From the NCBI GenBank assembly GCA_012026785.1, contig VEOW01000115.1, forward strand, positions 3,495 to 67,494: a DNA stretch of 64,000 nucleotides, read 5' to 3'. The notes under the pieces were generated by a model. That model ran no database searches and was not told where the DNA came from. It was given only the letters and a program-made list of their open reading frames with translations. Numbering within the stretch: position 1 is the stretch's first letter; every line of letters begins with the position of its first letter. Of this stretch, positions 9,496-45,233 are shown piece after piece. A program made the position numbers and the translations under genes. Origin of the DNA: Chloroflexota bacterium. GTDB taxonomy: Bacteria > Chloroflexota > Limnocylindria > Limnocylindrales > CSP1-4.

Positions 9496-11067
9496 ATGCA
9501 GGGTCGCGTGGAGAATCGGCGAGGCGAGGGCCGTCGCGAGCGTCGTGAGCGCCGCGCGGCGGCGGGGGTTCCCCGGCTGCCGTGGCGCCGGATCGTCAAC
9601 CCGTTCCCGCCGCTCGAGATCCTGAGCGTCGATCAGCTCGAGACGATCCACCAGGCGGGGCTCCGGATCCTGCGCGACATGGGCGTTGAGGTTCTCGGCG
9701 GGCGCGCTATCGATCACTTCGAGCGAGCCGGGGCGAGCGTCGAGCGAGAGGGCGACGTCGCCGGCCGCGGGGCGGCCGGGCTGGTCCGACTCGAGCCCGC
9801 CCACGTGGAGGAGCTGGTCGCCAGGGCGCCGTCGCGCTTCGAGCTGTTCGCCCGCAACCCCGATCGAAACCTCGTCTTCGGCGATCGCCACCTCGTCTTC
9901 GGAGCCGTCGGCGGCCCGGCCTTCGTGACCGACATCGACCGTGGCCGGCGGGCCGGCAACTTCGAGGATTTCGAAGCCTACGTCCGCCTGATCGGCGCGC
10001 TCGACGTCATTCACCAGGAGGCCGGCGGACCGCTCGAGCCGACCGACCTGCCGGTCGAGACGCGGCACCTCGACATGTACCGGACGCTGGCCACGACGCT
10101 CGACAAGACGTGGCAGTGCCTGGCCTACGGGCGCGAGACCGTGGACGATGCGATCGAGATCGCCTGCCTGGCGCGCGGGGTCAACCGCGAGCAGCTGGTG
10201 CGCGAGCCGAGCCTGATGACGATCGTGAACACCAACTCGCCGCTGCGCCTCGATGGCCCGATGTCCGAGGGGCTGATCGAGATGGCGACCTGGGGCCAGC
10301 CGGTCGTCGTGACCCCGTTCACGATCTCCGGCGCGATGGCGCCCGCCACGCTCGCCGGCGCCCTCGCCGAGCAGCACGCCGAGGCGCTGTTCGTCGTCGC
10401 CCTCGCCGAGATCGTCCGACCCGGGACGCCGATGATCTACGGCGGCTTCACCTCGAACGTCGACATGCGGACCGGCTCGCCGGCCTTCGGCACGCCCGAG
10501 TACGTGAAGGCGCAGCTCGCCAGCGGCCAGCTGGCCCGGCGGGTCGGGCTGCCGTTGCGCTCGTCGAACGTCACCGGCTCGGCGGTCGTCGATGCCCAGG
10601 CGGCGTACGAGAGCGAGATGTCGATCTGGGGGGCGATGCTGGCCGGCGCAAACCTGCTGTACCAGGGCGCGGGCTGGCTGGAAGGCGGCCTCACCGCGTC
10701 GTTCGAGAAGCTGATCCTCGACGCGGAGCTGCTCCAGCAGATGGCGCTGGTGCTCGAGCCGATCGCGGTCTCGGACGACGAGCTGGGGCTCGATGCGATC
10801 GCCGAGGTCGGCCCCGGCGGCCACTTCTTCGGGGCGGCCCACACGCTGGCGAGGTTCGAGACGGCCTTCTACCAGCCGATGCTCTCGGACTGGCGGAACT
10901 TCGAGACGTGGCGCGACGACGGCGCTCGGACTGCGACCGAGCGGGCGAACGCCATCTGGAAGCGACTCCTGGCCGAGTTCGAGCCGCCGCCGCTCGATCC
11001 GGGCACCGCCGAGGCCATCGACGCCTTCGTCGAGCGTCGGAAGCGCGAGATCGTGCCCGGCGGGTAA
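9496..11067 (+). CDS. MttB-superfamily (trimethylamine-methyltransferase-like) methyltransferase, non-pyrrolysine type
   Basis: 523 aa with an Arg-rich N-terminus, a GPGGHFFGAAHT motif near the C-terminus and overall MttB-family similarity. There is no in-frame TAG. Confidence 0.75.
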   Translation: MQGRVENRRGEGRRERRERRAAAGVPRLPWRRIVNPFPPLEILSVDQLETIHQAGLRILRDMGVEVLGGRAIDHFERAGASVEREGDVAGRGAAGLVRLEPAHVEELVARAPSRFELFARNPDRNLVFGDRHLVFGAVGGPAFVTDIDRGRRAGNFEDFEAYVRLIGALDVIHQEAGGPLEPTDLPVETRHLDMYRTLATTLDKTWQCLAYGRETVDDAIEIACLARGVNREQLVREPSLMTIVNTNSPLRLDGPMSEGLIEMATWGQPVVVTPFTISGAMAPATLAGALAEQHAEALFVVALAEIVRPGTPMIYGGFTSNVDMRTGSPAFGTPEYVKAQLASGQLARRVGLPLRSSNVTGSAVVDAQAAYESEMSIWGAMLAGANLLYQGAGWLEGGLTASFEKLILDAELLQQMALVLEPIAVSDDELGLDAIAEVGPGGHFFGAAHTLARFETAFYQPMLSDWRNFETWRDDGARTATERANAIWKRLLAEFEPPPLDPGTAEAIDAFVERRKREIVPGG

Positions 11068-11788: not shown

Positions 11789-12850
11789 TCAACCGTTCGC
11801 AATGCCAGCGGCCGCCGTCGCCAGCGGTTCCTTCTCGGCGAGCCAGCACGCGGCAGATTGGCCACCGCCGACGTCGAAGAGTGGCGGCGGCTCGACCCGG
11901 CAGCGGTCGAAGGCCAGCGGGCAGCGGGTGTGGAACCGGCAGCCGGGCGGGATGGCGGCTGCGTCGGGCGTCTCGCCGCTGAGGACGACGCGCTTCGCGC
12001 GCTCCTCGGCCGTCATCGGCTCGGGCGACGGCGACACGGACACCTGCGCCTGGGTGTACGGATGGCGCGGCGCGGAGATGACTCGTGCGGCTGGACCGAT
12101 CTCCATGATCGCCCCGAGGTACATGACCGCGATGCGATCGGCGATCACCCATGCCAGCGACAGGTCGTGGGTGATGAACAGGTACGTCAGGCCGCGCTCC
12201 TTGCGAAGGTCCAGCATGAGGTGCAGCAGCTCGGTTCGAATCGAGACGTCCAGCATGCTGCCCGGCTCGTCGGCGACCACGAGCTCCGGCCCCAGCACGA
12301 GCGCGCCGGCGATGACCGCCCGCTGGCGCTGGCCGCCCGAAAGCTCGTGGGGATAGCGAGCCGCGAACTGGTCGGCCGGCCGCAGGCCAGCCGCGTCGAT
12401 CGCCTCGAGGACCCGCCGCTCGCGCTCGGCCGGCGTCCCGGCGAGGCCGTTGACCTGGAGCGGCTCGGCCACGAACTCGCGGATCGACTGCTTCGGGTCG
12501 AGCGTCTCGTACGGGTCCTGGAAGATGAGCTGGACGCGCCGCCGATAGCCGCGCAGGTGACGCTGGCCCCAGAGGTCCGAGACGTCCGCCCCGTCGAATT
12601 CGATGCGGCCACCGGTCTGGCGGGTGAGCTTGACGATGACCCGGCCGGTCGTCGTCTTGCCGGAGCCGGATTCACCGACCAGCCCGAGGACCTCGCCGCT
12701 GTCGATCGCCAGGTCGATCCCGTCGACGGCGCGGACGACCCCACCCGAGCGACCGAGGGCGATCTCGACCAGGCCACGCCGGATCGGGAAGTGGACCTGG
12801 AGGTTCGTCAGCCGGAGCAGCTCGGTCACCAGCGATCCCTCACGCCGCAT
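11789..12850 (-). CDS. peptide ABC transporter ATP-binding protein (DppF/OppF-like)
   Basis: Walker A GESGSGKTT, signature LSGGQRQR, Walker B LVVADEP and a C-terminal oligopeptide-transporter extension. Start placed at M31 (12850), adjacent to the upstream stop. Confidence 0.85.
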   Translation of the reverse strand: MRREGSLVTELLRLTNLQVHFPIRRGLVEIALGRSGGVVRAVDGIDLAIDSGEVLGLVGESGSGKTTTGRVIVKLTRQTGGRIEFDGADVSDLWGQRHLRGYRRRVQLIFQDPYETLDPKQSIREFVAEPLQVNGLAGTPAERERRVLEAIDAAGLRPADQFAARYPHELSGGQRQRAVIAGALVLGPELVVADEPGSMLDVSIRTELLHLMLDLRKERGLTYLFITHDLSLAWVIADRIAVMYLGAIMEIGPAARVISAPRHPYTQAQVSVSPSPEPMTAEERAKRVVLSGETPDAAAIPPGCRFHTRCPLAFDRCRVEPPPLFDVGGGQSAACWLAEKEPLATAAAGIANG

Positions 12851-13925
12851 CCTCGCCCGCGGCCGTCGGCGTCGCCGGCGACGCCCCACTGACCTCGTCC
12901 GACGACGGAAACAGATGGCAGGCGACCCGGACCCCGTCATCGAAGCGGACTTCGGGGGGATCGACCTCCGAGCAGACCGGCATCACGAACGGACAGCGCG
13001 GGGCGAACCGGCAGCCGGTCGGTGGATCGAGCAGGTCGGGCGGCTGGCCCGGGATGACCTCGAGCGTCCGGCGGTCGGCGTGGATGTTCGGAAAGGCGCC
13101 GAGCAGCTTGCGGGTGTAGGGATGGCGCGGCTCCCGGAAGACCCGTTCGACGGGCCCCTCCTCGGCGACCTTGCCGGCATACATGATCAGCACCCGGTCG
13201 CACGTCTCGGCGATGACCGAGAGGTCGTGGGTGATCAGGATCAACGACAGGCCGAGGTCACGCCGCAGCTGCTCGAGGAGCAGCAGGATCTGGGCCTGGA
13301 CCATGACGTCGAGCGCGGTCGTCGGTTCGTCGCCGATGACGATCGCCGGGTCGCAGGCCAGGGCCATCGCGATCATCGCCCGCTGGCGCATCCCTCCGGA
13401 GAGCTCGTGGGGGTAGGCGCCGAGGCGCTTGCGCGGGATGCCGACGAGGTCCAGCAGCTCGGCGGCTCGCCGCTTGGCGGCGGTGTCGCTCTGGCCGAGC
13501 CGGTGCCGGATCGGCTCGGCGATCTGGTCGGCCACGCGGATGACGGGATTGAGGGCGTTCATCGCGCCCTGGAAGACGATGCTGATCTCGCGCCAGCGGT
13601 AGCGCTGCATGGCCCGCTCCGACTTGGGCACGAGATCGATCCCGAACAGCTCGACGCTGCCGCCGCGGATCCGGCCGTTCGAGGGCAGCAAGCGAACGAG
13701 CGACAGCGCGGTCGTCGTCTTGCCGCAGCCGGATTCGCCGGCCAGGCCAAGGGCCTCGCCGTCGGCCAGCGAGAAAGACACGCCGTCGACCGCGCGGACC
13801 CAGCCGCGCTCCAGCCGGAAGTGCGTCTTCAGGTCGCGGACCTCGAGCAGCGGCGCGGCGGGGTCCGCGAGCTTCGGCAGCGGCCACTGGCGGCGGCCGC
13901 GGATCTCGTCGGGCGTCTGGGTCAT
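12840..13925 (-). CDS. peptide ABC transporter ATP-binding protein (DppD/OppD-like)
   Basis: GESGCGKTT, LSGGMRQR, IVIGDEPTTALD. Start at MTQTPDEI (13925), overlapping the permease stop. Confidence 0.85.
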   Translation of the reverse strand: MTQTPDEIRGRRQWPLPKLADPAAPLLEVRDLKTHFRLERGWVRAVDGVSFSLADGEALGLAGESGCGKTTTALSLVRLLPSNGRIRGGSVELFGIDLVPKSERAMQRYRWREISIVFQGAMNALNPVIRVADQIAEPIRHRLGQSDTAAKRRAAELLDLVGIPRKRLGAYPHELSGGMRQRAMIAMALACDPAIVIGDEPTTALDVMVQAQILLLLEQLRRDLGLSLILITHDLSVIAETCDRVLIMYAGKVAEEGPVERVFREPRHPYTRKLLGAFPNIHADRRTLEVIPGQPPDLLDPPTGCRFAPRCPFVMPVCSEVDPPEVRFDDGVRVACHLFPSSDEVSGASPATPTAAGEDAA

Positions 13926-14866
13926 CGGCGGCCCTGCAGCTTCGGATTCAGGATGTCGTCGAGAGCGTTGCCGAGGAGCGTGAAAGCGAACACGACGAGC
14001 ACGACCGCGGTGCCGGCAGGGACGAAGTACCACCACGCGCCGAGGCCCGGCGCGCCGGTGCTCCGGGCGGCTTCCAGCAGCTGGCCCCACGACGGCTGGA
14101 ACGGGTCGCCGAGGCCAACGAACGACAGCGTCGTCTCGGTCAGGATCGCCCCTGCGAAGGTCAGGACGGCGTTGGCCACGATGAGGTTCACGACGTTCGG
14201 GAGGATGTGGCGGCGCATGATGTGGCCGCTCGAGGCGCCGATCACGCGCGCCCGGTCGACGAACGCCCGCTCCTTGAGGGACAGCGTCTGGGCGCGGATG
14301 ATCCGGGCCGCCGACGACCAGCTGGTGATACCGATGACGACCACGATCACCAGCAGGCTGAGGCGGATGCCGAAGAGCTCGCGGCTGCCGGTGCCCAGGG
14401 CGTCGCGGATGATCGCGGTCAGGATGATCGCCAGGACGAAGGTTGGCAGGACGAGGAAGAAGTCGGCGACCCGCATCAGGACCGCGTCGAAGCGCCCGCC
14501 GACGTAGCCGCTGACGATGCCCAGGACCGCCCCGATGGCGACCGTGATGAACGTCGCCAGCAGCCCGATGACCATCGAGATCCGGGTCGCGTGGACGGTC
14601 AGGTTGAGGATCGAGCGGCCCAGCTGGTCGGTCCCGAACGGGAACTCGGTCGACGGCGGGGCGAGCCGCGGCCCCGTCGCGGTCACCGCGGTCTGGAGCG
14701 GGCCGACGAGGACGTCCGGCAGGATCGCTAGGATCGTGAAGACGGCCAGGATGCCGATCCCGAAAGCGCCGTTCGGGCGTCGCAGGATCTCGCGCAGGAA
14801 TGCCCCCCGCCGACGGCCGACCGGGCGGAGCGAGGTGTCGCTGACCGGTAGGGCAGGGGCGGTCAC
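13922..14866 (-). CDS. peptide ABC transporter permease (DppC/OppC-like)
   Basis: Multi-TM permease with EAA-like loop. GTG start at 14866 overlapping the upstream stop (GTGA). The 474-aa track ORF is an artefactual extension. Confidence 0.8.
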   Translation of the reverse strand: MTAPALPVSDTSLRPVGRRRGAFLREILRRPNGAFGIGILAVFTILAILPDVLVGPLQTAVTATGPRLAPPSTEFPFGTDQLGRSILNLTVHATRISMVIGLLATFITVAIGAVLGIVSGYVGGRFDAVLMRVADFFLVLPTFVLAIILTAIIRDALGTGSRELFGIRLSLLVIVVVIGITSWSSAARIIRAQTLSLKERAFVDRARVIGASSGHIMRRHILPNVVNLIVANAVLTFAGAILTETTLSFVGLGDPFQPSWGQLLEAARSTGAPGLGAWWYFVPAGTAVVLVVFAFTLLGNALDDILNPKLQGRR

Positions 14867-15840
14867 GTTCGAACCCGCGGGTCGAGGATGCCGTAGGTCA
14901 GGTCGGCGACGAGGTTCGCGAGGACCACGCCCACGCTGAGCAGCAGAAACACGCCCTGCAGGACGGGGAAGTCGCGGCTCGACAGGGCGTCGACCGTCAG
15001 CGTGCCGAGCCCTGGCCAGTTGAAGACGACCTCGACCGTGATCGCACCCGCCACGACGTAGCCGAGGTTGATCGCGATGAGCGTCACTGCCGGCAGCAGG
15101 GCGTTGGGGATGGCGTGGGTCCGCAGCACCCGGCCCTCGGTGAGGCCCTTCGCCCGGGCGGTCGTGATGTAGTCCTCGCTGAGCGTCTCGACGATCGACG
15201 AGCGCATCAGGATCGAGTACTGGCCGACGAGGCCGAGTGCCACCGTGGCCAGCGGCAGCGCGAGGTGGAAGCCGATGTCGGCGATCTGGTCGAGGGGTCC
15301 CGAGTACACGCGCCCGACCGTGTCGATCCCGAACGTCGGGAACCATCCCAGGCCGGTCGCGAAGATCAGCAGCAGGGCCATCCCGAGGAGGAAGTACGGC
15401 GTCGAGTACAGGATCAGCGACAGGCCGTTGCCGAGGTGGTCGAGGACGCCCCCTCGTCGCCAGCCCGAGTAGGCGCCGAGCGCCAGGCCGAGGACGATCG
15501 CGATGAGCTCGCCGAGCCCGAACAGCAGCAGCGTCGGCCCGAGCTTCTGCAGGAGTACGTCAGTCACCGGGCGACCACGGGCCCCGTACGAGAAGCCGAG
15601 GTCGCCCTGCGCCGTCGCGGCCAGGTAGGCCACGAACTGGTCCGGGAACAGCGGCTTGTCGAGGCCCCACCGCTCCCGGGTGGCCGCCACGACCTCGCCG
15701 CTCACGTTCGGGATCCGGCCGAGCAGGATGCGCTCCGGTGAGCCGGGCATCATCCGGAACAGCACGAAGTTCAGGATCACGATCAGCAGGATCGTGATCG
15801 CCGCGCTCGCGAGCCGCCGGGCGAGATACCGAAGGCTCAC
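14863..15840 (-). CDS. peptide ABC transporter permease (DppB/OppB-like)
   Basis: Typical BPD-transporter permease with 6 TM helices and the YITTARAKGL EAA motif. Confidence 0.85.
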   Translation of the reverse strand: MSLRYLARRLASAAITILLIVILNFVLFRMMPGSPERILLGRIPNVSGEVVAATRERWGLDKPLFPDQFVAYLAATAQGDLGFSYGARGRPVTDVLLQKLGPTLLLFGLGELIAIVLGLALGAYSGWRRGGVLDHLGNGLSLILYSTPYFLLGMALLLIFATGLGWFPTFGIDTVGRVYSGPLDQIADIGFHLALPLATVALGLVGQYSILMRSSIVETLSEDYITTARAKGLTEGRVLRTHAIPNALLPAVTLIAINLGYVVAGAITVEVVFNWPGLGTLTVDALSSRDFPVLQGVFLLLSVGVVLANLVADLTYGILDPRVRT

Positions 15841-15857
15841 GCGCTACCGCTCGGATG

Positions 15858-15880
15858 GGGTGGGCTGGGGGCGCCGAAGC
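15858..15880 (-). other. intercistronic GC hairpin (GGGGGCGC-cgaa-GCGCCCCC) between the substrate-binding protein and permease genes
   Basis: Perfect 8-bp stem read directly. Such hairpins between the binding-protein gene and the permease gene commonly stabilise the upstream mRNA segment. Confidence 0.4.
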
Positions 15881-15889
15881 GCCCCCGCG

Positions 15890-17800
15890 TCACTCTTCTT
15901 CCTCGGCCGGGCGCCGTCGGCGCATCAGCAGGAAGCCGCCGCCGACGACCGCGATGACCACGAGCGCCCCGACGAGCAGGACCGTCGAGTCGACCCCGCC
16001 GCCGGCGCCCGCTGGCGCCGCGCTCGGCGTCGGGCTGGTGCCAGGCGATTCGCCGGCCGTCGGCGCCGCCGTGGGCGGGCCCTCGGTCGGGACGGCGCTG
16101 GCGTCCTGGAGCAGCATGTAGCCGGGGTAGCCGAAGCCGAACAGCGGCACGCCGGTATCGGGCGGCTGGTTGGTCCAGCCGGTGAACTTGTCGGTCCGCA
16201 TCGCGTGCAGCTCGCTGTCGTAGTACAGGACGTGATAGCAGGCTGCGTCGTAGAACAGCTGCTGCATCTCGTCGACGTACTCCTTGCGGGTCGCCTCGTC
16301 GGTTGCCTGCTGCTGGAGCGTGTTCAGCTCGTCATAGCGAGGATCCGAGTAGAAGCAATCGTTGACCGCCTGGGGGATCTGGTCGGTCGTGAACAGCCCC
16401 AGCAGCGAGTTCGGGTCAGGGTCGCCGCCCCAGCCCCACATGTAGAAGTCCCAATCGGCGTTGTACCCGTCGTCGTACTCGGGCCCCGGCAGGAGTTCGA
16501 GGAGGGCGCCCTCCTCGGTCACCGCGGCGTCGACCCCGATGCCGATCTGCTCGAACCAGCCCTGGATGAACTGGGCGTCGGCGGAGTGGTCTTCCGAGTC
16601 CGGCCAGGTCAGCCGCAGGACGATCGGTTTGCCGTCCTTGTCGACCCGGCGTCCGTCGTCACCGCGCGCGTAGCCGGCGGCGTCGAGGCGCCGATTGGCC
16701 TCGGCGAGGTCGAAGGTTCGCGGGTTGTCGGGCTCGACGTGCCAGTCGACGTGGTACGGCGGGACGTGCGTCGTTCCGGGGACCCCGTGGCCGTTCAGAA
16801 CCCGATCCACCAGCGTCTGCCGATCGATGGCGTATCCAAGGGCGTCGCGGAAGGCCTGGTCCTCGAGAGCCGAGGTGGACCCGCCATAGCCGTCCTCGGT
16901 TGCCCGGGTGTTGAACGACAGGTAGGTATAGCCGTTGGCGTAGCCCTCGGCGACACGGATGTTCGGCTCGGTCGCGAGAGCATCGAACTGGTCGGCCCCG
17001 GTGCCTCGGACGTAGTCGAGCTCGCCCGACCGCAGCGCCTGGACCATGGTGTCCACGCTCTCGAACGTCTGGAAGACGATCTGGTCGGGGACGCCGGGCG
17101 TCCCCCAGTAGTTGGGATTGCGCTCCATCCGGATGGACTCGCCGGGGACCCACTCGACGGCGTGGTACGGCCCGGAGCCGACGACCGGCGGCTCGTTGGC
17201 GAAGTAGCCCTCGGCCGTGGCGTCGCTGATCTCCTGCTGGCTGTACTGCGACCAGATGTGCTCGGGCAGGATCGGGACGTAGGCCTGGGTGAGGAGAGTC
17301 GTTGGATATGAGGTGGTGGCGATCAGGTTCCCGGCGTCGTCGCACTCCACGCTCTCGAGCCCGGCACTGGAGAGATACGGCTCGAGATAGCCTGAGCCGA
17401 CGTAGCCGTCGTCGGACGCCAGCACGTCGAGGACGAACTGGTAGGTGTAGCGGGCGTCCTCGCAGGTCGCCGGCTCACCGTCCGACCACTTCATCCCCTC
17501 GCGGATGTGGAAGGTGTGCGTCTTGCTGTCCGCCGACGTCGACCAGCTGTCGGCGAATCCGGGCGCCGGCTCGAGGTTGATGTCGAAGCTCACCAGCAGC
17601 TCGTACTGGATGCTGAACATCTCGTAGTCGGCATACGTGATCGACTGCCAGGGATTGAGCGTCTCGAGCTTCTGGTCGGTCCCGACCCGCAGCACGAGCT
17701 GGTCCTGGGCCTTGGCCCCACCGGCCATGATCAGCGTTGGGGCGAGCAGCAGCATGGCGGCCAGCATGGGCCGCACGCGGCGAGTCAGTGGTGATCGCAT
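15890..17800 (-). CDS. family-5 (peptide/nickel) ABC substrate-binding protein with N-terminal signal peptide and C-terminal PT-rich linker plus TM anchor
   Basis: Start at MRSPLTRRVRPMLAAMLLLAPTLIMAGGAKA with a GGAGGAGG RBS. SBP_bac_5-like body. C-terminus PTEGPPTAAPTAGESPGTSPTPSAAPAGAGGG, then LLVGALVVIAVVGGGFLLM and RRRRPAEEEE. Confidence 0.85.
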   Translation of the reverse strand: MRSPLTRRVRPMLAAMLLLAPTLIMAGGAKAQDQLVLRVGTDQKLETLNPWQSITYADYEMFSIQYELLVSFDINLEPAPGFADSWSTSADSKTHTFHIREGMKWSDGEPATCEDARYTYQFVLDVLASDDGYVGSGYLEPYLSSAGLESVECDDAGNLIATTSYPTTLLTQAYVPILPEHIWSQYSQQEISDATAEGYFANEPPVVGSGPYHAVEWVPGESIRMERNPNYWGTPGVPDQIVFQTFESVDTMVQALRSGELDYVRGTGADQFDALATEPNIRVAEGYANGYTYLSFNTRATEDGYGGSTSALEDQAFRDALGYAIDRQTLVDRVLNGHGVPGTTHVPPYHVDWHVEPDNPRTFDLAEANRRLDAAGYARGDDGRRVDKDGKPIVLRLTWPDSEDHSADAQFIQGWFEQIGIGVDAAVTEEGALLELLPGPEYDDGYNADWDFYMWGWGGDPDPNSLLGLFTTDQIPQAVNDCFYSDPRYDELNTLQQQATDEATRKEYVDEMQQLFYDAACYHVLYYDSELHAMRTDKFTGWTNQPPDTGVPLFGFGYPGYMLLQDASAVPTEGPPTAAPTAGESPGTSPTPSAAPAGAGGGVDSTVLLVGALVVIAVVGGGFLLMRRRRPAEEEE

Positions 17801-17912
17801 CGATCCTCCTCCAGGGACGCCGGTGTGGGCGCGAGCCCGCAACACGCGCGTCGCGCGACGGCCGCTAGGTTCGCACGCTCGGGGGTGCGAATGCAACCAG
17901 ATCGCGCCGCCC

Positions 17913-19088
17913 TCAGCGGTCCGCGACGAGATTCGCAGTCGAAGCCGCCCGGAGGATCGGTCGATCGCAGCTGAAGAGGCCTTCGCCGGGCGTTTTCGCG
18001 CGTCTGTCGCCGAGGGCGAGGTCAGCGAGGATCCGGCCGAACAGGGCGGCGAACTTGTAGCCATGGGCCGCCCCGAGCGCGACCACCAGGCCCGGCATGC
18101 CCGGGACGCAATCGAGCACGAAGTCCCGGTCGGGCGTCAGGGTGTAGAGGCAGGTCTTCGTTCGAGTCGGGCCGAGGGCGGTCGGGAGGTGCTGCTCGAG
18201 GAAGCCGGCCACGCGGGCGAGACCGTCGGGGTCCGGTTCGAACGATCGTCCGTCGGCCGTCGTCTCGCGGCCGCCGATGTCCTGGCCGACCTTCGGCCCC
18301 CGGCCGCGGTGCGCCGGGAAGCCGTAGAACGACGGCTCGCCGAGCCAGATCCAGATCGGGAAGCGGTCGGGTTCGAAGGCCGCCCGGTCGGTGGCGTCGA
18401 ACCAGGTGACCTGCTCGCGGGTGACCCGCAGCGGGAGGGCGTGACCGAGTGGACCCAGGAGGTCGTTCGTCCAGGCATCGGTGGCCAGGACGACGGCCCC
18501 GGTTTCGAACCGCCGGCCATCGGCCGTCTCGACCGTCAGCTCCCCAGCGGCCTCCTCGCGGATCCCGGTCACCTTGACCCGTTCGAGGAGCTCGGCCCCG
18601 TGCTCGCGCGCCAGCCGCTGGTGGGCCGGGTTGCCGACGCTCGGATCGGCGATTCCGGCAGCCTCCTGGAGCAGCCCGCGAGTGCCGTCGTCGAGGCGCC
18701 ACTGGGGCCAGCGCCGGGCGATGGCGGCGGTATCCAGCCACTCGAACGCGACGCCCGCGGCGGTCATCGCGGCGGCGTAGTCCTCGATGGCCTCGGGCGC
18801 GTCGGGCGGCGCCAGGTCCAGCCCGCCGGTGATCGTCAGGATGCGGTCGCCGGACGCGGCCTCGACCTCGTGCCACGCCGCGAAGGCATCCTTCGCGAGC
18901 TCCACGTACTCGCGCCGGTGGTACGACAGCCGGATGATCCGCGACTCGTCCTGCGACGCGCCGCGGTCGTGACCGAGCTCGAACTGCTCCAGGCCCAGGA
19001 CGCGGGCTCCGCGCTGGGCCAGGCGGTAGGCCGCGGCGCTCCCGATTCCACCGAGACCGATGACGATTGCGTCATAGCTGGTGCTCAC
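17913..19088 (-). CDS. FAD-dependent monomeric sarcosine oxidase / N-methyltryptophan oxidase-like oxidoreductase
   Basis: GTG start with a GGGAG RBS. YDAIVIGLGGIGSAAAYRLA dinucleotide fold and DAO-family body. A Cys near the C-terminus (LFSCDRP) is in the position expected for a covalent flavin. Confidence 0.7.
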   Translation of the reverse strand: MSTSYDAIVIGLGGIGSAAAYRLAQRGARVLGLEQFELGHDRGASQDESRIIRLSYHRREYVELAKDAFAAWHEVEAASGDRILTITGGLDLAPPDAPEAIEDYAAAMTAAGVAFEWLDTAAIARRWPQWRLDDGTRGLLQEAAGIADPSVGNPAHQRLAREHGAELLERVKVTGIREEAAGELTVETADGRRFETGAVVLATDAWTNDLLGPLGHALPLRVTREQVTWFDATDRAAFEPDRFPIWIWLGEPSFYGFPAHRGRGPKVGQDIGGRETTADGRSFEPDPDGLARVAGFLEQHLPTALGPTRTKTCLYTLTPDRDFVLDCVPGMPGLVVALGAAHGYKFAALFGRILADLALGDRRAKTPGEGLFSCDRPILRAASTANLVADR

Positions 19089-37624: not shown

Positions 37625-38594
37625 GCCGAGTCTTCCACGCCGGTGTCGCCGGTCAGCTCCAGGTACCGTTCCTCGAGGCTCGCCGACCCGCTCCGGAGCT
37701 GCAGGATCAGGAGCCCCTCCCGAGCCGCCCAGCTGGCGACCGTGGCGATCGCGTCGGCCGCCTGGAGCCCCGGTGCGATGGAGAGCTCGTTCGTCCGGCC
37801 CTCATCCACGGCGACGGGTGCGGGCGATCCGGGAGCGAGGGCCCGGCCGAGCCGGGCGAGGGCCGCGGGCTCGGGCGCGGCGTGGAGCCGGACGCGAATG
37901 CCGGCCGTGCCCGCATCGGCCATGAGGGCGGCCGGCGCGCCCTCGGCCAGGATCCGACCCGACGCCAGGATCACGACCCGGTCGGCCAGCTCCTCGGCGT
38001 CGGCGAGGTCGTGCGTCGTCAGCAGGATTGCCCGCCCCTCGGCTCGAAGCCGCTCGATCAGCGCCCGGGCGCCGCGTCGCGCCTCGGGGTCGAGGCCGGC
38101 CGTCGGCTCGTCGAGAATCAGCACCTCGGGATTGCCGACGAGCGCGATGGCGAGCGCGAGGCGCTGACGCTCGCCGCCCGAGAGCCGCCGGATCGGACGA
38201 GCTGCGACGGTCTCGAGGCCGACCGAGGCCAGGAGCTCGTCGGGATCGTGGCCACCCTCGTGCAGTGCCGAGAAGAGCCGCAGCGATTCTCGCGCCGTTG
38301 CTCGCGGCTGGAGGCCCTCCCCGCCCTGCAGCATGAACCCGACGCGCGCCCGCAGCGCCGCCCCACCCGCTCGGGGCTCCCGGCCGCGCACGCGGACCGC
38401 CCCGCCGTCGGGGGTTCGATAGCCCTCGATGATCTCGACCTCGTCGTCTTGCCGGCACCGTTCGGACCGAGGAGGGCGACGAGCTCGCCAGGCCGGACCG
38501 CGAGATCGATCCCGTCGAGGACGGTCCTGCCGCCGTAGCGCTTGACGAGCCCCGCGACCTCGATGGCCGCGGGCGCGAGGGCCGCCTGGGTCAC
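37621..38594 (-). pseudogene. ABC transporter ATP-binding protein interrupted by a -1 frameshift (about 38445-38450)
   Basis: N-terminal part (GTG 38594; VKRYGG, Walker [10 protein letters not shown]) sits in one frame and the rest ([25 protein letters not shown]-loop TTHDL) in another. Restoring one C in acgacga(c)ggtcgag gives the continuous [26 protein letters not shown]. Confidence 0.7.
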
Positions 38595-39064
38595 GAATCG
38601 GGCGCGATCAGCGCGTACTGGCGCTCGAAGTCGGCGTCGGTGACCTCGCCGACCTGGATGGCTCGAAGGATCCCCGCCGGGTCGATGAAGTACGTCTGCG
38701 GCCGCGCGGCCACGCGGTACGCGCGCCGAATGGCGCCGTCGGGGTCGTCGACCGTCGGCCAGGTTGCGCCCATCTCGGCGATGAAGTCTCGAGCCGGCGC
38801 GACCGGGTCGAACGTCAGGATTCCGACGATCGCCAGGCCGTCCTCGGCATGCTCGGTGAGCTTCGACTTGAAGAGCGGGAACTCGTCCCGGCAGGGCACG
38901 CACGACGGGCCCCAGAAGTTGAGGATGACGGGACGACCGCGCAGCGACGCGAGATCGAATGAGTCGCCGTCGAGGGTCGTCCCGAGGACCGCCGGCGCGG
39001 CCTGGCCCTTGGCGATGAGCCCGGATTCCGAACTGCCCGGCCCACACGCCACGAGGGCGAGCAA
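38591..39064 (-). CDS. TlpA-family thiol-disulfide oxidoreductase (thioredoxin fold, CxxC), probable lipoprotein
   Basis: WGPSCVPC active site. Lipobox-like LVAC right after a TTG start. The in-frame upstream sequence encodes the rest of a signal peptide ([26 protein letters not shown]) but has no canonical start codon. Confidence 0.7.
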
Positions 39065-39168: not shown

Positions 39169-40251
39169 CTACCGGACGATCAGCGTCCCGGTCATCGCGG
39201 GGATCGGATGGACGGAGCAGATGAAGACGTATTCACCGGCTTCGAGCGGGGTGTACTGGTAGATCTGGGATTCTCCGCCCTCGGTGTGCGGCGTGTCCTG
39301 CAGCACCCCGCCGCCCCCGTCGCGGATGTCGATGTCGTGCGGGACCGACGGAGGGTCCTCGTTTCGAAGCTCGATCGCGAACGGCTCGCCGGCAGGGACC
39401 TCGATCTCGTGGGTGTCGAAGGCGATGTCCTTGGCGACGACGATGATCGTCCCGGGTGGCGCACTGGCCTGGCCGCTTGGCGCCGGCGAACCGCCGGGCC
39501 CGCCGGCCGCCTCGTCGGGGCCCTGGATCGGCAGGATTCCGAGCTGGAACAGGCCAACGAGCACGAACGCCACGGCGAACAGCTGCAGCCAGGTCGCCGG
39601 CCAGCGTTTCGGGGGCGGGTTCTCGAGGTGGCCGGTCGCGTCGGCCTCCTCGACCTTTCGATACTCGGCCGTGAAGTCGCCGAGCCAGCCGACGAGCGTC
39701 CAGGTGAGGAAGACCGCGGCCAGCACGAGGACCCAGCCGCCGAAGACGAGGCCGGCCATCAGGGCAAACGCCCCGAGGGAGGCGAGCAACGGGCGGATCG
39801 ATGGCCCGGGCATGTGGACGCCCGGTGGGGGTCCCTCGTGGACGACCGCCGGCAACGCCGTCGGGGACTCCAGGCGGTCGTATTCGCGAACCGCCTCCCG
39901 GCCCCAGACGAGCATCGTGGCGATGAGGAGGACAACGCCGATCCACAGGAATGCACCGCCGGCCACGAGCCCGAAGAACAGGGCCCCGGCGCCGAGGGCG
40001 ACGAGGATCGGGGACGCCGATGGACCGGGCATGTGGAGGTGCCTCGGCGTGACCGGCGTCACCCGCGCCGGCGCCCGGCGCGTCGGGCCGGCGGTCGCGA
40101 AGCGTCGGATGGTCCAGCCGAAGTACAGGAGCACCAGGAGCGCCAGCAGCAGCGGGATGCGGGCGACCAGCTCGCTCCAATCGGGGGTGATGAACGTTGC
40201 CGCGAGGTCGAGCAGCGTCTGCACCAGGTCCTTCGGCGCCTCGGTCTCCAT
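39169..40251 (-). CDS. polytopic membrane protein with internal tandem repeat and C-terminal type-1 copper (plastocyanin-like cupredoxin) domain
   Basis: Two repeats of about 55 aa (HMPGPS-x2-P-[IL]L[VA]-x-LGA-x-AL...GLV-x-GG...EY[DR][RK]), each with two TM helices. C-terminal domain has H (PHDIDI), C-x2-H-x4-M ([11 protein letters not shown]). Its end is identical to the CoxB C-terminal domain. Confidence 0.7.
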
Positions 40252-40281: not shown

Positions 40282-40479
40282 CTACTCGCCCGGCTCGGAC
40301 GGCCCGGTGTGCAGCACGAAGGCCATGATCCCGAGGGCCACGCCAAGGGCGAACAGCATCGTCACGCCGGCCCACTCAACGTGGTAGCCGAGGACCGGCG
40401 CGAATGCCGCGTAGGCGATCGCGATCAGGATCGTGCCACCTGCGATCAGGCCGGCGATGAGGTTCCTGCTCAGGAGCAT
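40282..40479 (-). CDS. small two-TM membrane protein, putative oxidase subunit IV
   Basis: 65 aa, two hydrophobic helices, located immediately after ctaE in the operon. Assignment by position only. Confidence 0.4.
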   Translation of the reverse strand: MLLSRNLIAGLIAGGTILIAIAYAAFAPVLGYHVEWAGVTMLFALGVALGIMAFVLHTGPSEPGE

Positions 40480-42907: not shown

Positions 42908-44017
42908 TCAGCGGACCGTCAGCGTCCCGGTCATCGCCGGGATGGGGTGGACGGAGCAGATGAACGTGTAGGTGCCCGCCGGGAGCGGGTCGTAGGTGTA
43001 GGTGGTGGAGGTTCCGCCGTCGATCGTCGGCTGGTCCTGGACGACGGTGGTGTTGTCGGTCTCGCGGATGTCGGCGTCATGCGGAACGCCGGGCGGGTCA
43101 TTGTTGGCGAACTGGATGGCGAACGGCGTGTCGGCCGGCACTTCCAGCTCGAGCGTGTCGTAGGCGATGTTTTCGGCCGAGAGGGTCAGCGTCGTCGCCC
43201 CGCTCGGCAGCGGCGGCGGGGTGGCGTTCGACTTCTCGATCAGCGCCGCCAGCCAGGCGTCGAAGTCGGCCTGGCTCAGCGCGAGGACGTCGAACAGCAT
43301 GACCCGATGTCCGGTCCCGCACAGCTCGGCGCACTGGCCGCGGTACGTCTGGCCGGCCTCGCTGGGGTCGAGGGTGAACTCGAAGTGGTTGGTCTGCCCG
43401 GGCACGACATCGCGCTTGAAGAGGAAGCGCGGGACGTACCAGGCGTGGATCACGTCGGGGCTGTCGAGGGTCACGTAGACCGTTCGCCCGACCGGGACGG
43501 CCATGCCGCCGCCCTGGTCGGCCACGGGGACGGACTGGGTGGCGAGAACCTGGCCGTTCGCGTCGAGGTACTCGAACTGCCACTGGAACTGGCCGGCCAC
43601 AGCGTGGACTCGAACGTCGGGATCGACGCTCACGGCTTCGATGTTGTTCAGCGTCTGCCACGAGATGACGAAGAGGTACAGGACGATGACCGTCGGGATC
43701 AGCGTCCACAGCACCTCGACGAAGTTGTTGCCGTGAGTCTGCGGCGGCAGGTCGGTGTCGGTCGGCTTCCGGCGGTAGCGGATGATGCTCCAGACGATCA
43801 GGCCCTCGACGGCGACGAAGATCGCGACGGCGATGGCGAAGACGATGTCGTAGAGCGAGGCGATCTCGCGAGCCTGGTCGGTCGCGGGCGCAGGCGGATA
43901 GAGGGCCGACCCGGCTCCGGTCAGGAACACCACGGCGACGACGGCGATCAGGAGCAGAACCACGGCACCCGCCACGAGCGCTTCGGAGGCGGGTTGTTTC
44001 CTGGGACTCGTCGACAT
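42908..44017 (-). CDS. ctaC: cytochrome c oxidase subunit II with C-terminal fused cupredoxin (blue-copper) domain
   Basis: Two N-terminal TM helices. CuA centre HAWYVPRF...CAELCGTGHRVM. Extra C-terminal domain has PHDADI...[18 protein letters not shown] (H, C-x2-H-x4-M) in the place where caa3 oxidases carry cytochrome c. Confidence 0.85.
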   Translation of the reverse strand: MSTSPRKQPASEALVAGAVVLLLIAVVAVVFLTGAGSALYPPAPATDQAREIASLYDIVFAIAVAIFVAVEGLIVWSIIRYRRKPTDTDLPPQTHGNNFVEVLWTLIPTVIVLYLFVISWQTLNNIEAVSVDPDVRVHAVAGQFQWQFEYLDANGQVLATQSVPVADQGGGMAVPVGRTVYVTLDSPDVIHAWYVPRFLFKRDVVPGQTNHFEFTLDPSEAGQTYRGQCAELCGTGHRVMLFDVLALSQADFDAWLAALIEKSNATPPPLPSGATTLTLSAENIAYDTLELEVPADTPFAIQFANNDPPGVPHDADIRETDNTTVVQDQPTIDGGTSTTYTYDPLPAGTYTFICSVHPIPAMTGTLTVR

Positions 44018-44123
44018 GACTCCTCGTGCGGTCGGTCAGGACAAGGGGTCCAACGGGCTGCGCTCGACACCCGCCGGAACAGGACGCGCGTGCTGGCCGA
44101 CCGCGACGGGTCAACCGACCCGC

Positions 44124-45233
44124 ATGATAGCGCGAGGCCGAGATCGCGCGCCGTGCCACCATGACGGGGTGATCTGCCTCTCCTCGTGCCCCGGCCGCGT
44201 CGTCCCCCGGCTCGTCGGGGGCGGCGTTGCCGTCCTCGCGCTGGCCGCGATCGCGGGCCCGGTGGCGGCCCACGGCGGCGCGCCCGACGAGGCGCCGACG
44301 CTGGCGTCGTTCGTGTTCGACTGGTCGTTCGAGCCGCTGGTCGCGATCCCGTTGGTCCTGGCTGCGCTGGTCTGGCTGACCCTCGTCGACCGCGCCGGCC
44401 GACTGCATCCCGGGCACCCGGTCTCGCCATGGCGCACGGCGGCGTTCTTCGGCGGGCTGGCGGCGGTCGCGATGGCCCTCATGTCCGGGGTGGAGGCGTA
44501 CGACACGACCCTCTTCTCGGTCCACATGGTCCAGCACATGCTGCTGACCTTCGCCGCCGCGCCGCTCCTCGTTCTCGCCGCGCCGGTCACCCAGCTGCTA
44601 CGGGCCGCCAGCCCGGAGGTCCGGCGCCGCTGGATCCTGCCGATCCTGCACTCTGGCCCGGTGGCCGTCCTCGGCCACCCGGTGGTCGCGTGGCTGACGT
44701 TCACGGTCGTCATGTGGGCGACCCACTTCTCGCCGCTGTTCGACATGGCGCTCGAGGACCCCTTCCTCCACGACATCGAGCACGCGCTGTTCCTCGGGTC
44801 CGCGCTGCTGTTCTGGTGGCCGGTCGTGGGGGCCGATCCCGGTCCGCGGCGAATGGGCTTCGCCGGGCGGGGCCTGTACCTACTCCTGCAGATGCCGCCG
44901 AACTCGTTCCTCGCGGTCGCGATCCTGATGGCCGGCGCGCCGCTGTACCCCCATTACGCGACACTCGGCTCGCCCTACGGCATCGACCCGCTGGCCGACC
45001 AGCAGCTCGCCGCCGGGCTGATGTGGGTCGTCTCCGACTTCGTGTTCATCGGCGCGATCCTGCTCGTGGTCGCGGCCTGGATGCGCCAGGAGGAGCGGGA
45101 CGCCCCGGCGGTCGAGCGGCGGGTGGAGCGGGAGCGGCAGCGGATCAGCCAGCGGGCGGAGGAGCTCGCTGCCCGGACCGGTCAGCCCGGCGAGCCGTCC
45201 TCGGGCGGCGGCCAGGCGAGCAGGGTTCGGTAG
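44124..45233 (+). CDS. CtaG/caa3-type cytochrome oxidase assembly factor-like membrane protein
   Basis: Signal/TM N-terminus, 7 TM helices, conserved HMVQHML and H-rich loops. Divergent from ctaC. The ATG at 44124 is chosen from several candidates. Confidence 0.6.
   Translation: MIARGRDRAPCHHDGVICLSSCPGRVVPRLVGGGVAVLALAAIAGPVAAHGGAPDEAPTLASFVFDWSFEPLVAIPLVLAALVWLTLVDRAGRLHPGHPVSPWRTAAFFGGLAAVAMALMSGVEAYDTTLFSVHMVQHMLLTFAAAPLLVLAAPVTQLLRAASPEVRRRWILPILHSGPVAVLGHPVVAWLTFTVVMWATHFSPLFDMALEDPFLHDIEHALFLGSALLFWWPVVGADPGPRRMGFAGRGLYLLLQMPPNSFLAVAILMAGAPLYPHYATLGSPYGIDPLADQQLAAGLMWVVSDFVFIGAILLVVAAWMRQEERDAPAVERRVERERQRISQRAEELAARTGQPGEPSSGGGQASRVR

Follow-up and report, generated by a model that had tools for sequence, protein, structure and literature searches.

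A CtaF-like protein of Limnocylindria with two subunit III hairpins and a tethered type-1 copper domain

Blue-copper proteins are established substitutes for cytochrome c between complexes III and IV in archaea (discussed, for example, in PMC5155288) and in Chloroflexus. The sulfocyanin SoxE of the archaeal SoxM supercomplex and the auracyanins of Chloroflexus/Roseiflexus (PDB 2AAN, 1QHQ, 6KOL) are membrane-attached carriers of this kind, placed between a quinol-oxidising complex and the oxidase. In the caa3 oxidases (Thermus thermophilus, PDB 2YEV; Bacillus CtaC), a haem c domain at the C-terminus of subunit II serves as an inbuilt donor to CuA. Subunit III varies as well: in mycobacteria, CtaF (PF12270; M. 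smegmatis/M. tuberculosis CIII2CIV2, PDB 6ADQ, 6HWH, 8HCR) supplies a helix pair that replaces transmembrane helices 1 and 2 (TM1-2) of subunit III beside a five-TM CtaE, and contact with complex III is made mainly through CtaE and CtaF (PMC8361435). Here we analysed a window of 64,000 nucleotides from a Chloroflexota bacterium of the Limnocylindrales (GenBank assembly GCA_012026785.1, contig VEOW01000115.1, positions 3,495 to 67,494), in which an oxidase operon, read from open reading frames (ORFs) of the minus strand, encodes a membrane protein that shares some features with these systems. We believe that this protein, hereafter the fusion protein, is best described as a CtaF-like subunit, specific to Limnocylindria, with two subunit III hairpins and a tethered type-1 copper domain. 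Our reading, to which we give a probability of roughly 60%, is that it is a lineage-specific structural subunit of the subunit III/IV type in the aa3-type (A-family) oxidase of Limnocylindria and tethers a blue-copper carrier beside CuA.

Each of the known systems matches the locus in part. Like CtaF, the fusion protein would offer a helix pair for TM1-2 beside a five-TM subunit III, but CtaF is a stand-alone protein of about 139 amino acids (aa) with four TM helices, a single hairpin and no extramembrane domain. Its hairpins resemble both TM1-2 of canonical seven-TM COX3 (PF00510) and the copy of this pair that the B. subtilis aa3-600 quinol oxidase (PDB 6KOB) has at the C-terminal end of its subunit I, with the same H-x3-PS-x-WP start, the same W-x-RD-x2-RE end and, relative to COX3, the same predicted orientation with a cytoplasmic start; unlike COX3, however, the module is detached from subunit III, tandem-duplicated and fused to a redox domain. 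As in caa3 oxidases, subunit II of the operon carries a C-terminal, presumed built-in donor to CuA, but this is a type-1 copper protein rather than haem c, and a second one sits on another subunit, the fusion protein. SoxE and auracyanin differ in being separate proteins held by a simple anchor (a single helix or a lipid), with no fusion to the oxidase core.

The membrane part carries the assignment to the oxidase. The original prediction of a 360-aa ORF with an N-terminal TM segment, a duplicated two-helix HMPGPS module and a C-terminal cupredoxin is borne out, and the two repeats align without gaps, with 27 identities in 61 positions (44%, E 3e-14). In an alignment of 67 homologues their H-x-P-G-x-S-x2-P cores are invariant (H73, P75, G76, S78 and P81 in repeat 1; H146, P148, G149, S151 and P154 in repeat 2). 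The actinobacterial CtaF family, PF12270 (Cyt_c_ox_IV), matches the fusion protein at 30.6 bits against a gathering threshold of 26.9, in two stretches, one per repeat, of which the better (aa 150-194) falls on profile positions 83-127 of 132; coverage is confined to the C-terminal third of the profile, and most homologues have the same precomputed match. Searched singly against the PDB, repeat 2 finds residues 9-66 of R. sphaeroides COX3 (E 0.005), and repeat 1 finds residues 9-68 of plant COX3 (E 0.016) and residues 578-622 of B. subtilis aa3-600 subunit I (QoxB). A profile built from 27 hairpins of distant family members matches R. sphaeroides COX3 at residues 10-65 (E 1.4e-7), mammalian COX3 at residues 7-64 (E 1e-4 to 1e-3), QoxB at residues 580-620 (E 7e-4) and the subunit I+III fusion of Thermus caa3 at residues 548-599 (E 0.086). 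Down to E 0.1 every PDB match is to TM1-2 of subunit III or to its fused copies, and unrelated proteins begin only at E 0.56. More distant members have the canonical PSPWP and W-x-RD-x2-RE motifs, and the signature motifs at both ends of the hairpin (H-x-P-x-P-S-x2-P ... W-x-[RG]-[DE]-x3-E-[YW]) are kept family-wide. These matches identify the HMPGPS module as TM1-2 of oxidase subunit III, a known building block of oxidases that occurs twice in the fusion protein. The original prediction had allowed that the membrane part might match a known, unrelated family that would explain the repeat trivially; a known family it is, but a related one, and we therefore place the protein in the oxidase.

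Since its match to Pfam COX3 starts only at profile position 77, after a hydrophilic stretch, the CoxC encoded in the same operon is, by its sequence, a five-TM form missing TM1-2. A search with the hairpin profile found no further copy of the hairpin in a six-frame translation of the window, CoxA included. Because CoxC has TM3-7 alone, we propose that one hairpin of the fusion protein packs against it, and the five-TM CoxC together with the mycobacterial precedent makes the TM1-2 site of subunit III its probable position. In a comparison of 18 distant members of the family the hairpins cluster by repeat number, first with first and second with second; the duplication of the hairpin is therefore old. 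Relatives with a single hairpin (P0149, P0193 and P0237) have one of the repeat 2 type, and repeat 1 is the variable copy, with lineage-specific insertions in its outer loop and complete absence from some relatives. Among the longer relatives no (Rosetta-stone) fusion of the hairpin with COX3 was found; they carry PF12270 and/or cupredoxin domains alone.

The C-terminal domain is a cupredoxin on several lines of evidence. Pfam Cupredoxin_1 matches aa 264-359 (E 2.4e-11, 44 bits against a cut-off of 27), and the AlphaFold2 (AF2) model, Foldseek and Pfam agree on a cupredoxin beta-sandwich. Foldseek returns amicyanin (E 5e-8), auracyanin and plastocyanin at a probability of 1.0, and the best sequence match in the PDB (phmmer) is Chloroflexus auracyanin A (E 7e-5); the Pfam SoxE model has no match in the protein. 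The copper site is of type 1, with an upstream His followed by Cys-x2-His-xn-Met, and all four ligands (His305, Cys345, His348 and Met353) are invariant in the 67 homologues. When the domains of other genomes are compared, the ligand set is kept in 58 of 59 fusion-protein domains, the exception being a frameshifted locus, and in all 59 domains fused to CoxB, with n = 2-5. The site is not a binuclear CuA centre (H-x34-C-x-E-x-C-x3-H-x2-M), as it has only one loop cysteine (C345) and no match to the COX2 model; CoxB of the same operon has the full CuA motif, CAELCGTGHRVM, readable in its translation. Nor does the single-Cys pattern resemble the motifs of copper chaperones (H(M)x10Mx21HxM or CxxxC), and no PCuAC (PF04314), Sco (PF02630) or HMA/CopZ-type match was found in the fusion protein at E<=0.1 in Pfam and NCBIfam. 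Of the two roles that had been suggested for the tethered copper domains, electron delivery thus fits the fully conserved type-1 ligand set, whereas copper handling is poorly supported. Some proteins of 440-640 aa (P0231, P0264, P0265, P0180, P0172 and P0213) carry 3-5 relatives of the cupredoxin in tandem, and these arrays could be multi-copper electron wires.

The AF2 model has six TM helices and a disordered linker at aa 243-262, with a mean predicted local distance difference test score (pLDDT) of 76 overall and of about 96 in the cupredoxin. Lysine and arginine residues are unevenly spread in the 67 homologues, with a mean of 12.7 in the predicted inner loops (before each hairpin and before TM6) against 0.7 in the outer ones, which comprise the N-terminus, the turns of the hairpins and the tether. 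Because of this skew, the cupredoxin is predicted to lie outside the cell, on the same side as CuA, as had been supposed, and both HMPGPS motifs are predicted to be cytoplasmic. The N-terminus of subunit III is likewise cytoplasmic. Residues 9-25 make up a highly conserved, predicted amphipathic helix on the outside (TLLDxAAxFITPDW), with P23 invariant and L14 and W25 kept in at least 90% of homologues; this helix is a candidate surface for contacts on that side.

CoxB ends in a second cupredoxin that is homologous to that of the fusion protein over the whole length of the domain (61/106 identities, 58%, E 8e-35), well beyond the last 20 residues. The original prediction took the identical tails of the two domains as a sign of recent duplication. 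The tail is the conserved copper-binding loop, and a tree of the C-terminal 98 residues of CoxB and the fusion protein from 59 genomes (118 domains) does not agree with a recent event: for 110 of the 118 domains the nearest neighbour is the domain at the same position, in CoxB or in the fusion protein, of another genome. In the window itself, the CoxB domain is 88% identical to that of CoxB at locus L005 and the fusion-protein domain 81% identical to its L005 counterpart, while the two domains of the window are 59% identical to each other in this set. Given that the copies are closest to their positional counterparts in other genomes, we reject a recent duplication of the cupredoxin. Strict ancient orthology is also an incomplete fit, as the mean identity of the two domains within a genome (51%) exceeds that between domains of different type from different genomes (44%) and as deep clades mix the two types; for these reasons occasional replacement, exchange or conversion of domains, or lineage-specific co-drift, is likely. 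The copper loop (C-x2-H-x2/3/4/5-M at loci L004-L083) has mostly the x2 spacing in CoxB-fused domains and mostly x4 in the fusion protein. In the window's own clade both domains have the x4 loop HPIPAM (window 39172..39240 and 42911..42980), and this shared loop suggests a past replacement or conversion of the domain.

The family is large and confined in its distribution. The fusion protein of the window is 100% identical to a deposited protein, FIA92_08380 ('Chloroflexi bacterium'), of a metagenome-assembled genome (MAG). More than 1500 relatives were found. Those with a named source all belong to Chloroflexota, for the most part to Candidatus Limnocylindria or Limnocylindrales; they are annotated only automatically, as 'cupredoxin domain-containing protein', 'cytochrome c oxidase subunit 4' or 'plastocyanin', and our literature searches found no description of the family. 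Within the GTDB species set, relatives are encoded at 181 loci, and in the best 80 of these, for which gene order was read and which stand for about 80 Candidatus Limnocylindria species, the order CtaG (on the opposite strand), CoxB-cupredoxin, CoxA, CoxC, small ORF, fusion protein and ResA-like protein is kept almost without exception. Co-occurrence with CoxB-cupredoxin fusions, one of the checks proposed, is thereby seen as one conserved operon, apart from three loci, L056 (1975-2883), L057 (6487-7401) and L062 (6489-7400), in which CoxB has no cupredoxin and ends in a short Pro/Ala/Ser tail after the CuA domain, while the downstream homologue of the fusion protein retains its own. That these lineages have lost the CoxB copy and not the other bears on the relative importance of the two. 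The TlpA/ResA-like gene is likewise linked to the fusion gene throughout, including in Ca. Limnocylindrus, where at L085:8829-11344 (GCA_049435925.1) CtaG (on the opposite strand), a 53-aa two-TM ORF, the fusion gene and the ResA-like gene stand together, coxBAC lies elsewhere, and the vicinity holds a YHS-domain gene and one for a heavy-metal P-type ATPase. The small ORF, the fusion gene and the ResA-like gene thus stay together beside CtaG where coxBAC is elsewhere.

The remaining genes of the operon and the parts of the fusion protein are listed in Table 1. The structural genes lie 13-30 bp apart, except for CoxA and CoxC, which share 4 bp. A scan for promoters and terminators was uninformative, every terminator-like match falling within coding sequence. 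For the TlpA/ResA-like protein, the NCBIfam models ResA, DsbE and TlpA all score below their own cut-offs.

Table 1. Coordinates of the oxidase operon in the window and of the parts of the fusion protein
Feature	Coordinates	Strand	Basis
Fusion protein, 360 aa, ATG start, six-TM oxidase subunit (our reading) with C-terminal type-1 copper cupredoxin	39169..40251	-	ORF; Pfam Cupredoxin_1 and PF12270; >1500 homologues with conserved architecture; AF2 model
N-terminal outward-facing helix (TLLDxAAxFITPDW) and TM1, aa 1-48	40108..40251	-	AF2 helices 9-21 and 25-53; conservation; net negative N-terminus, then Arg-rich loop
Hairpin repeat 1, aa 71-126, HLHMPGPS..., copy of subunit III TM1-2 module	39874..40041	-	Plant COX3 and QoxB matches; domain E 5e-25 to family profile
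Hairpin repeat 2, aa 144-199, GVHMPGPS..., copy kept in single-hairpin relatives	39655..39822	-	PF12270 best stretch aa 150-194; R. sphaeroides COX3 match
TM6, aa 219-238, membrane anchor of cupredoxin	39538..39597	-	AF2 helix 219-236; positive residues before, none after
Flexible Pro/Gly/Ser/Ala-rich tether, aa 239-265	39457..39537	-	pLDDT <50 at aa 243-262; length and sequence vary among homologues
Type-1 (blue) copper cupredoxin, aa 266-360, ligands His305, Cys345, His348, Met353	39172..39456	-	Pfam; ligand conservation; Foldseek; phmmer
CoxB, subunit II, 369 aa, intact CuA motif and C-terminal paralogous type-1 cupredoxin (about 42911..43213)	42908..44017	-	Pfam COX2_TM, COX2, Cupredoxin_1; TIGR02866 CoxB above cut-off
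CoxA, subunit I, A-family haem-copper oxidase, 587 aa	41131..42894	-	Pfam COX1, E 1.8e-162
CoxC/CtaE, five-TM subunit III without TM1-2, 213 aa	40493..41134	-	Pfam COX3 positions 77-255 of 258; hydrophilic N-terminal 34 aa
65-aa two-TM ORF with EWAGVTML motif ('ctaF' of the original prediction)	40282..40479	-	Present between CoxC and the fusion protein in most of 80 related loci
TlpA/ResA-like membrane thiol-disulfide oxidoreductase (thioredoxin fold), 157 aa, downstream of fusion gene	38591..39064	-	Pfam AhpC-TSA and Redoxin
Caa3_CtaG-type oxidase assembly factor, divergent from CoxB	44016..45233	+	Pfam PF09678, E 9e-72

The 65-aa ORF between CoxC and the fusion protein had been labelled ctaF, a label we reject: it has no match in Pfam, in NCBIfam or, by phmmer, in the PDB, and the PF12270 signature sits in the fusion protein. 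The ORF has the motif (I/V)EWAG(V/T)TML with an invariant G-x-T-x-L core and is conserved across the class. Its EWAGVTML is similar to the start of TM2 of mycobacterial CtaF, where the M. tuberculosis protein has GVEWAGTTAL at the matching position (sequence checked against PDB 8HCR). Comparison with the N-terminal half of CtaF gives weak matches (BLASTP E 0.011 over a 9-residue motif; hhalign E 6.7e-4 at 27% probability), and the ORF may be the counterpart of that half.

How the fusion protein would assemble with the oxidase, where its hairpins would dock, and in which direction and with which partners its cupredoxin would exchange electrons, we infer as follows. One hairpin, most likely repeat 2, would pack against CoxC and CoxA, making subunit III complete in the way the C-terminal half of mycobacterial CtaF does. 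The second hairpin, the N-terminal TM helix and the 65-aa protein would add peripheral helices through which a partner complex could make contact. TM6 and the flexible tether of about 27 residues would hold the type-1 cupredoxin on the outer side of the membrane, near CuA. There the cupredoxin would take electrons from a quinol-oxidising complex and hand them to CuA, either directly or through the cupredoxin fused to CoxB, which occupies the place of the cytochrome c domain in caa3 oxidases; the built-in copper carriers would then replace soluble cytochrome c. The TlpA/ResA-like neighbour may keep the copper-ligand cysteines reduced during assembly, a reductant role drawn from the function of TlpA in Bradyrhizobium. 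More tentative, and in our estimate somewhat short of even odds, is electron entry by copper alone, in which a Cu-Cu-CuA relay replaces cytochrome c and the extra hairpin possibly docks the quinol-oxidising partner in an obligate supercomplex; such an arrangement would be the bacterial counterpart of archaeal SoxM.

Several observations weigh against our assignment of the fusion protein to the oxidase as a carrier-bearing subunit. No complex III, alternative complex III (ACIII) or cytochrome c was found in Pfam scans of 20 further genes of the window, which encode transporters, peptidases, GOGAT, an MTTB homologue and similar proteins, and no quinol-oxidising complex or other donor was found in the 10-kb flanks of one related locus on a 2-Mb contig. 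The kinship with CtaF is distant: BLASTP of the fusion protein against M. tuberculosis CtaF is not significant, and the profile-profile comparison (hhalign) is weak, with E 2.5e-3 at 12% probability. In size and layout, too, the fusion protein departs from the stand-alone CtaF form (360 aa, with a cupredoxin after its six TM helices, against about 135-145 aa and four TM helices), and the full profile is not matched. The family assignment leaves the two-copy state of the hairpin without an explanation. Finally, all members of the family come from uncultured MAGs.

A stronger version of our reading would make the fusion protein the bridge of an obligate supercomplex, with one hairpin completing subunit III, the other docking the quinol-oxidising complex, and the cupredoxins acting as a fixed copper wire, comparable to the di-haem QcrC of actinobacteria. 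The precedent of CtaE and CtaF as the main interface with complex III in mycobacteria (PMC8361435) speaks for such a bridge, as do the variability of repeat 1, as would be expected of a partner-specific surface, and the presence of two copper centres in series, on CoxB and on the fusion protein. However, neither the window nor the flanks of the one related locus hold complex III or ACIII genes linked to the operon, and we consider the bridge unlikely.

We hold it to be similarly improbable that the fusion protein is an anchored blue-copper carrier for some other enzyme, such as an unknown dehydrogenase or a reductase of nitrite or nitrous oxide, with the hairpins as a mere anchor and the operon link as co-regulation. 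The separation of the 53-aa ORF, the fusion gene and the ResA gene from coxBAC in Ca. Limnocylindrus agrees with such a carrier, as does the occurrence of related cupredoxins in tandem multi-cupredoxin proteins outside oxidase operons. Yet a generic anchor would not need the signature motifs of subunit III kept family-wide at both ends of the hairpin, CoxC is missing exactly the hairpin module, and the Limnocylindrus gene still adjoins that of the oxidase assembly factor CtaG.

Least probable of all is a copper chaperone or assembly factor that delivers copper to CuA or to the CoxB cupredoxin with the TlpA/ResA-like reductase and CtaG, outside the mature electron path: although the fusion gene lies between the structural genes and the reductase gene, with Caa3_CtaG nearby, and although some cupredoxin-fold proteins are copper chaperones (CupA, PDB 4f2e, stands at rank 34 of the Foldseek list), the complete invariant C-x2-H-xn-M set is typical of electron carriers, chaperone families find no match, the closest structures and sequences are amicyanin, auracyanin and plastocyanin, and a transient factor would hardly be expected to be fused to a structural module of subunit III.

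Two genes of the window outside the operon may be recorded here. A phosphotriesterase-family protein (PF02126; 35505..36836, plus strand) has a twin-arginine-like N-terminus, SRRNFLKAAAMAGAGA, which suggests export by the twin-arginine translocation (Tat) pathway. A full-length homologue of MTTB, of the trimethylamine methyltransferase family (9496..11067, plus strand, E 3e-187), lies 5' of genes for an oligopeptide-type ABC transporter (12840..18064). For MttB relatives without pyrrolysine, glycine betaine is often the substrate.

Chloroflexota of the class Limnocylindria (earlier known as Ellin6529 and allied groups) are uncultured and abound in soil, groundwater and lakes. If electrons enter their oxidase by copper alone, it would represent a third solution beside the fused cytochrome c of caa3 oxidases and the di-haem QcrC of actinobacteria. 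The fusion protein shows the TM1-2 hairpin of subunit III as a mobile module in a fourth context, after COX3, subunit I and CtaF, now duplicated and joined to a redox domain, and it offers a testable case of the fixing of electron carriers to an oxidase. If the main oxygen reductase of Limnocylindria receives its electrons through built-in blue-copper domains, respiration in these bacteria would depend on copper rather than on haem c maturation, with a bearing on metabolic reconstructions of the class and on its trace-metal ecology.

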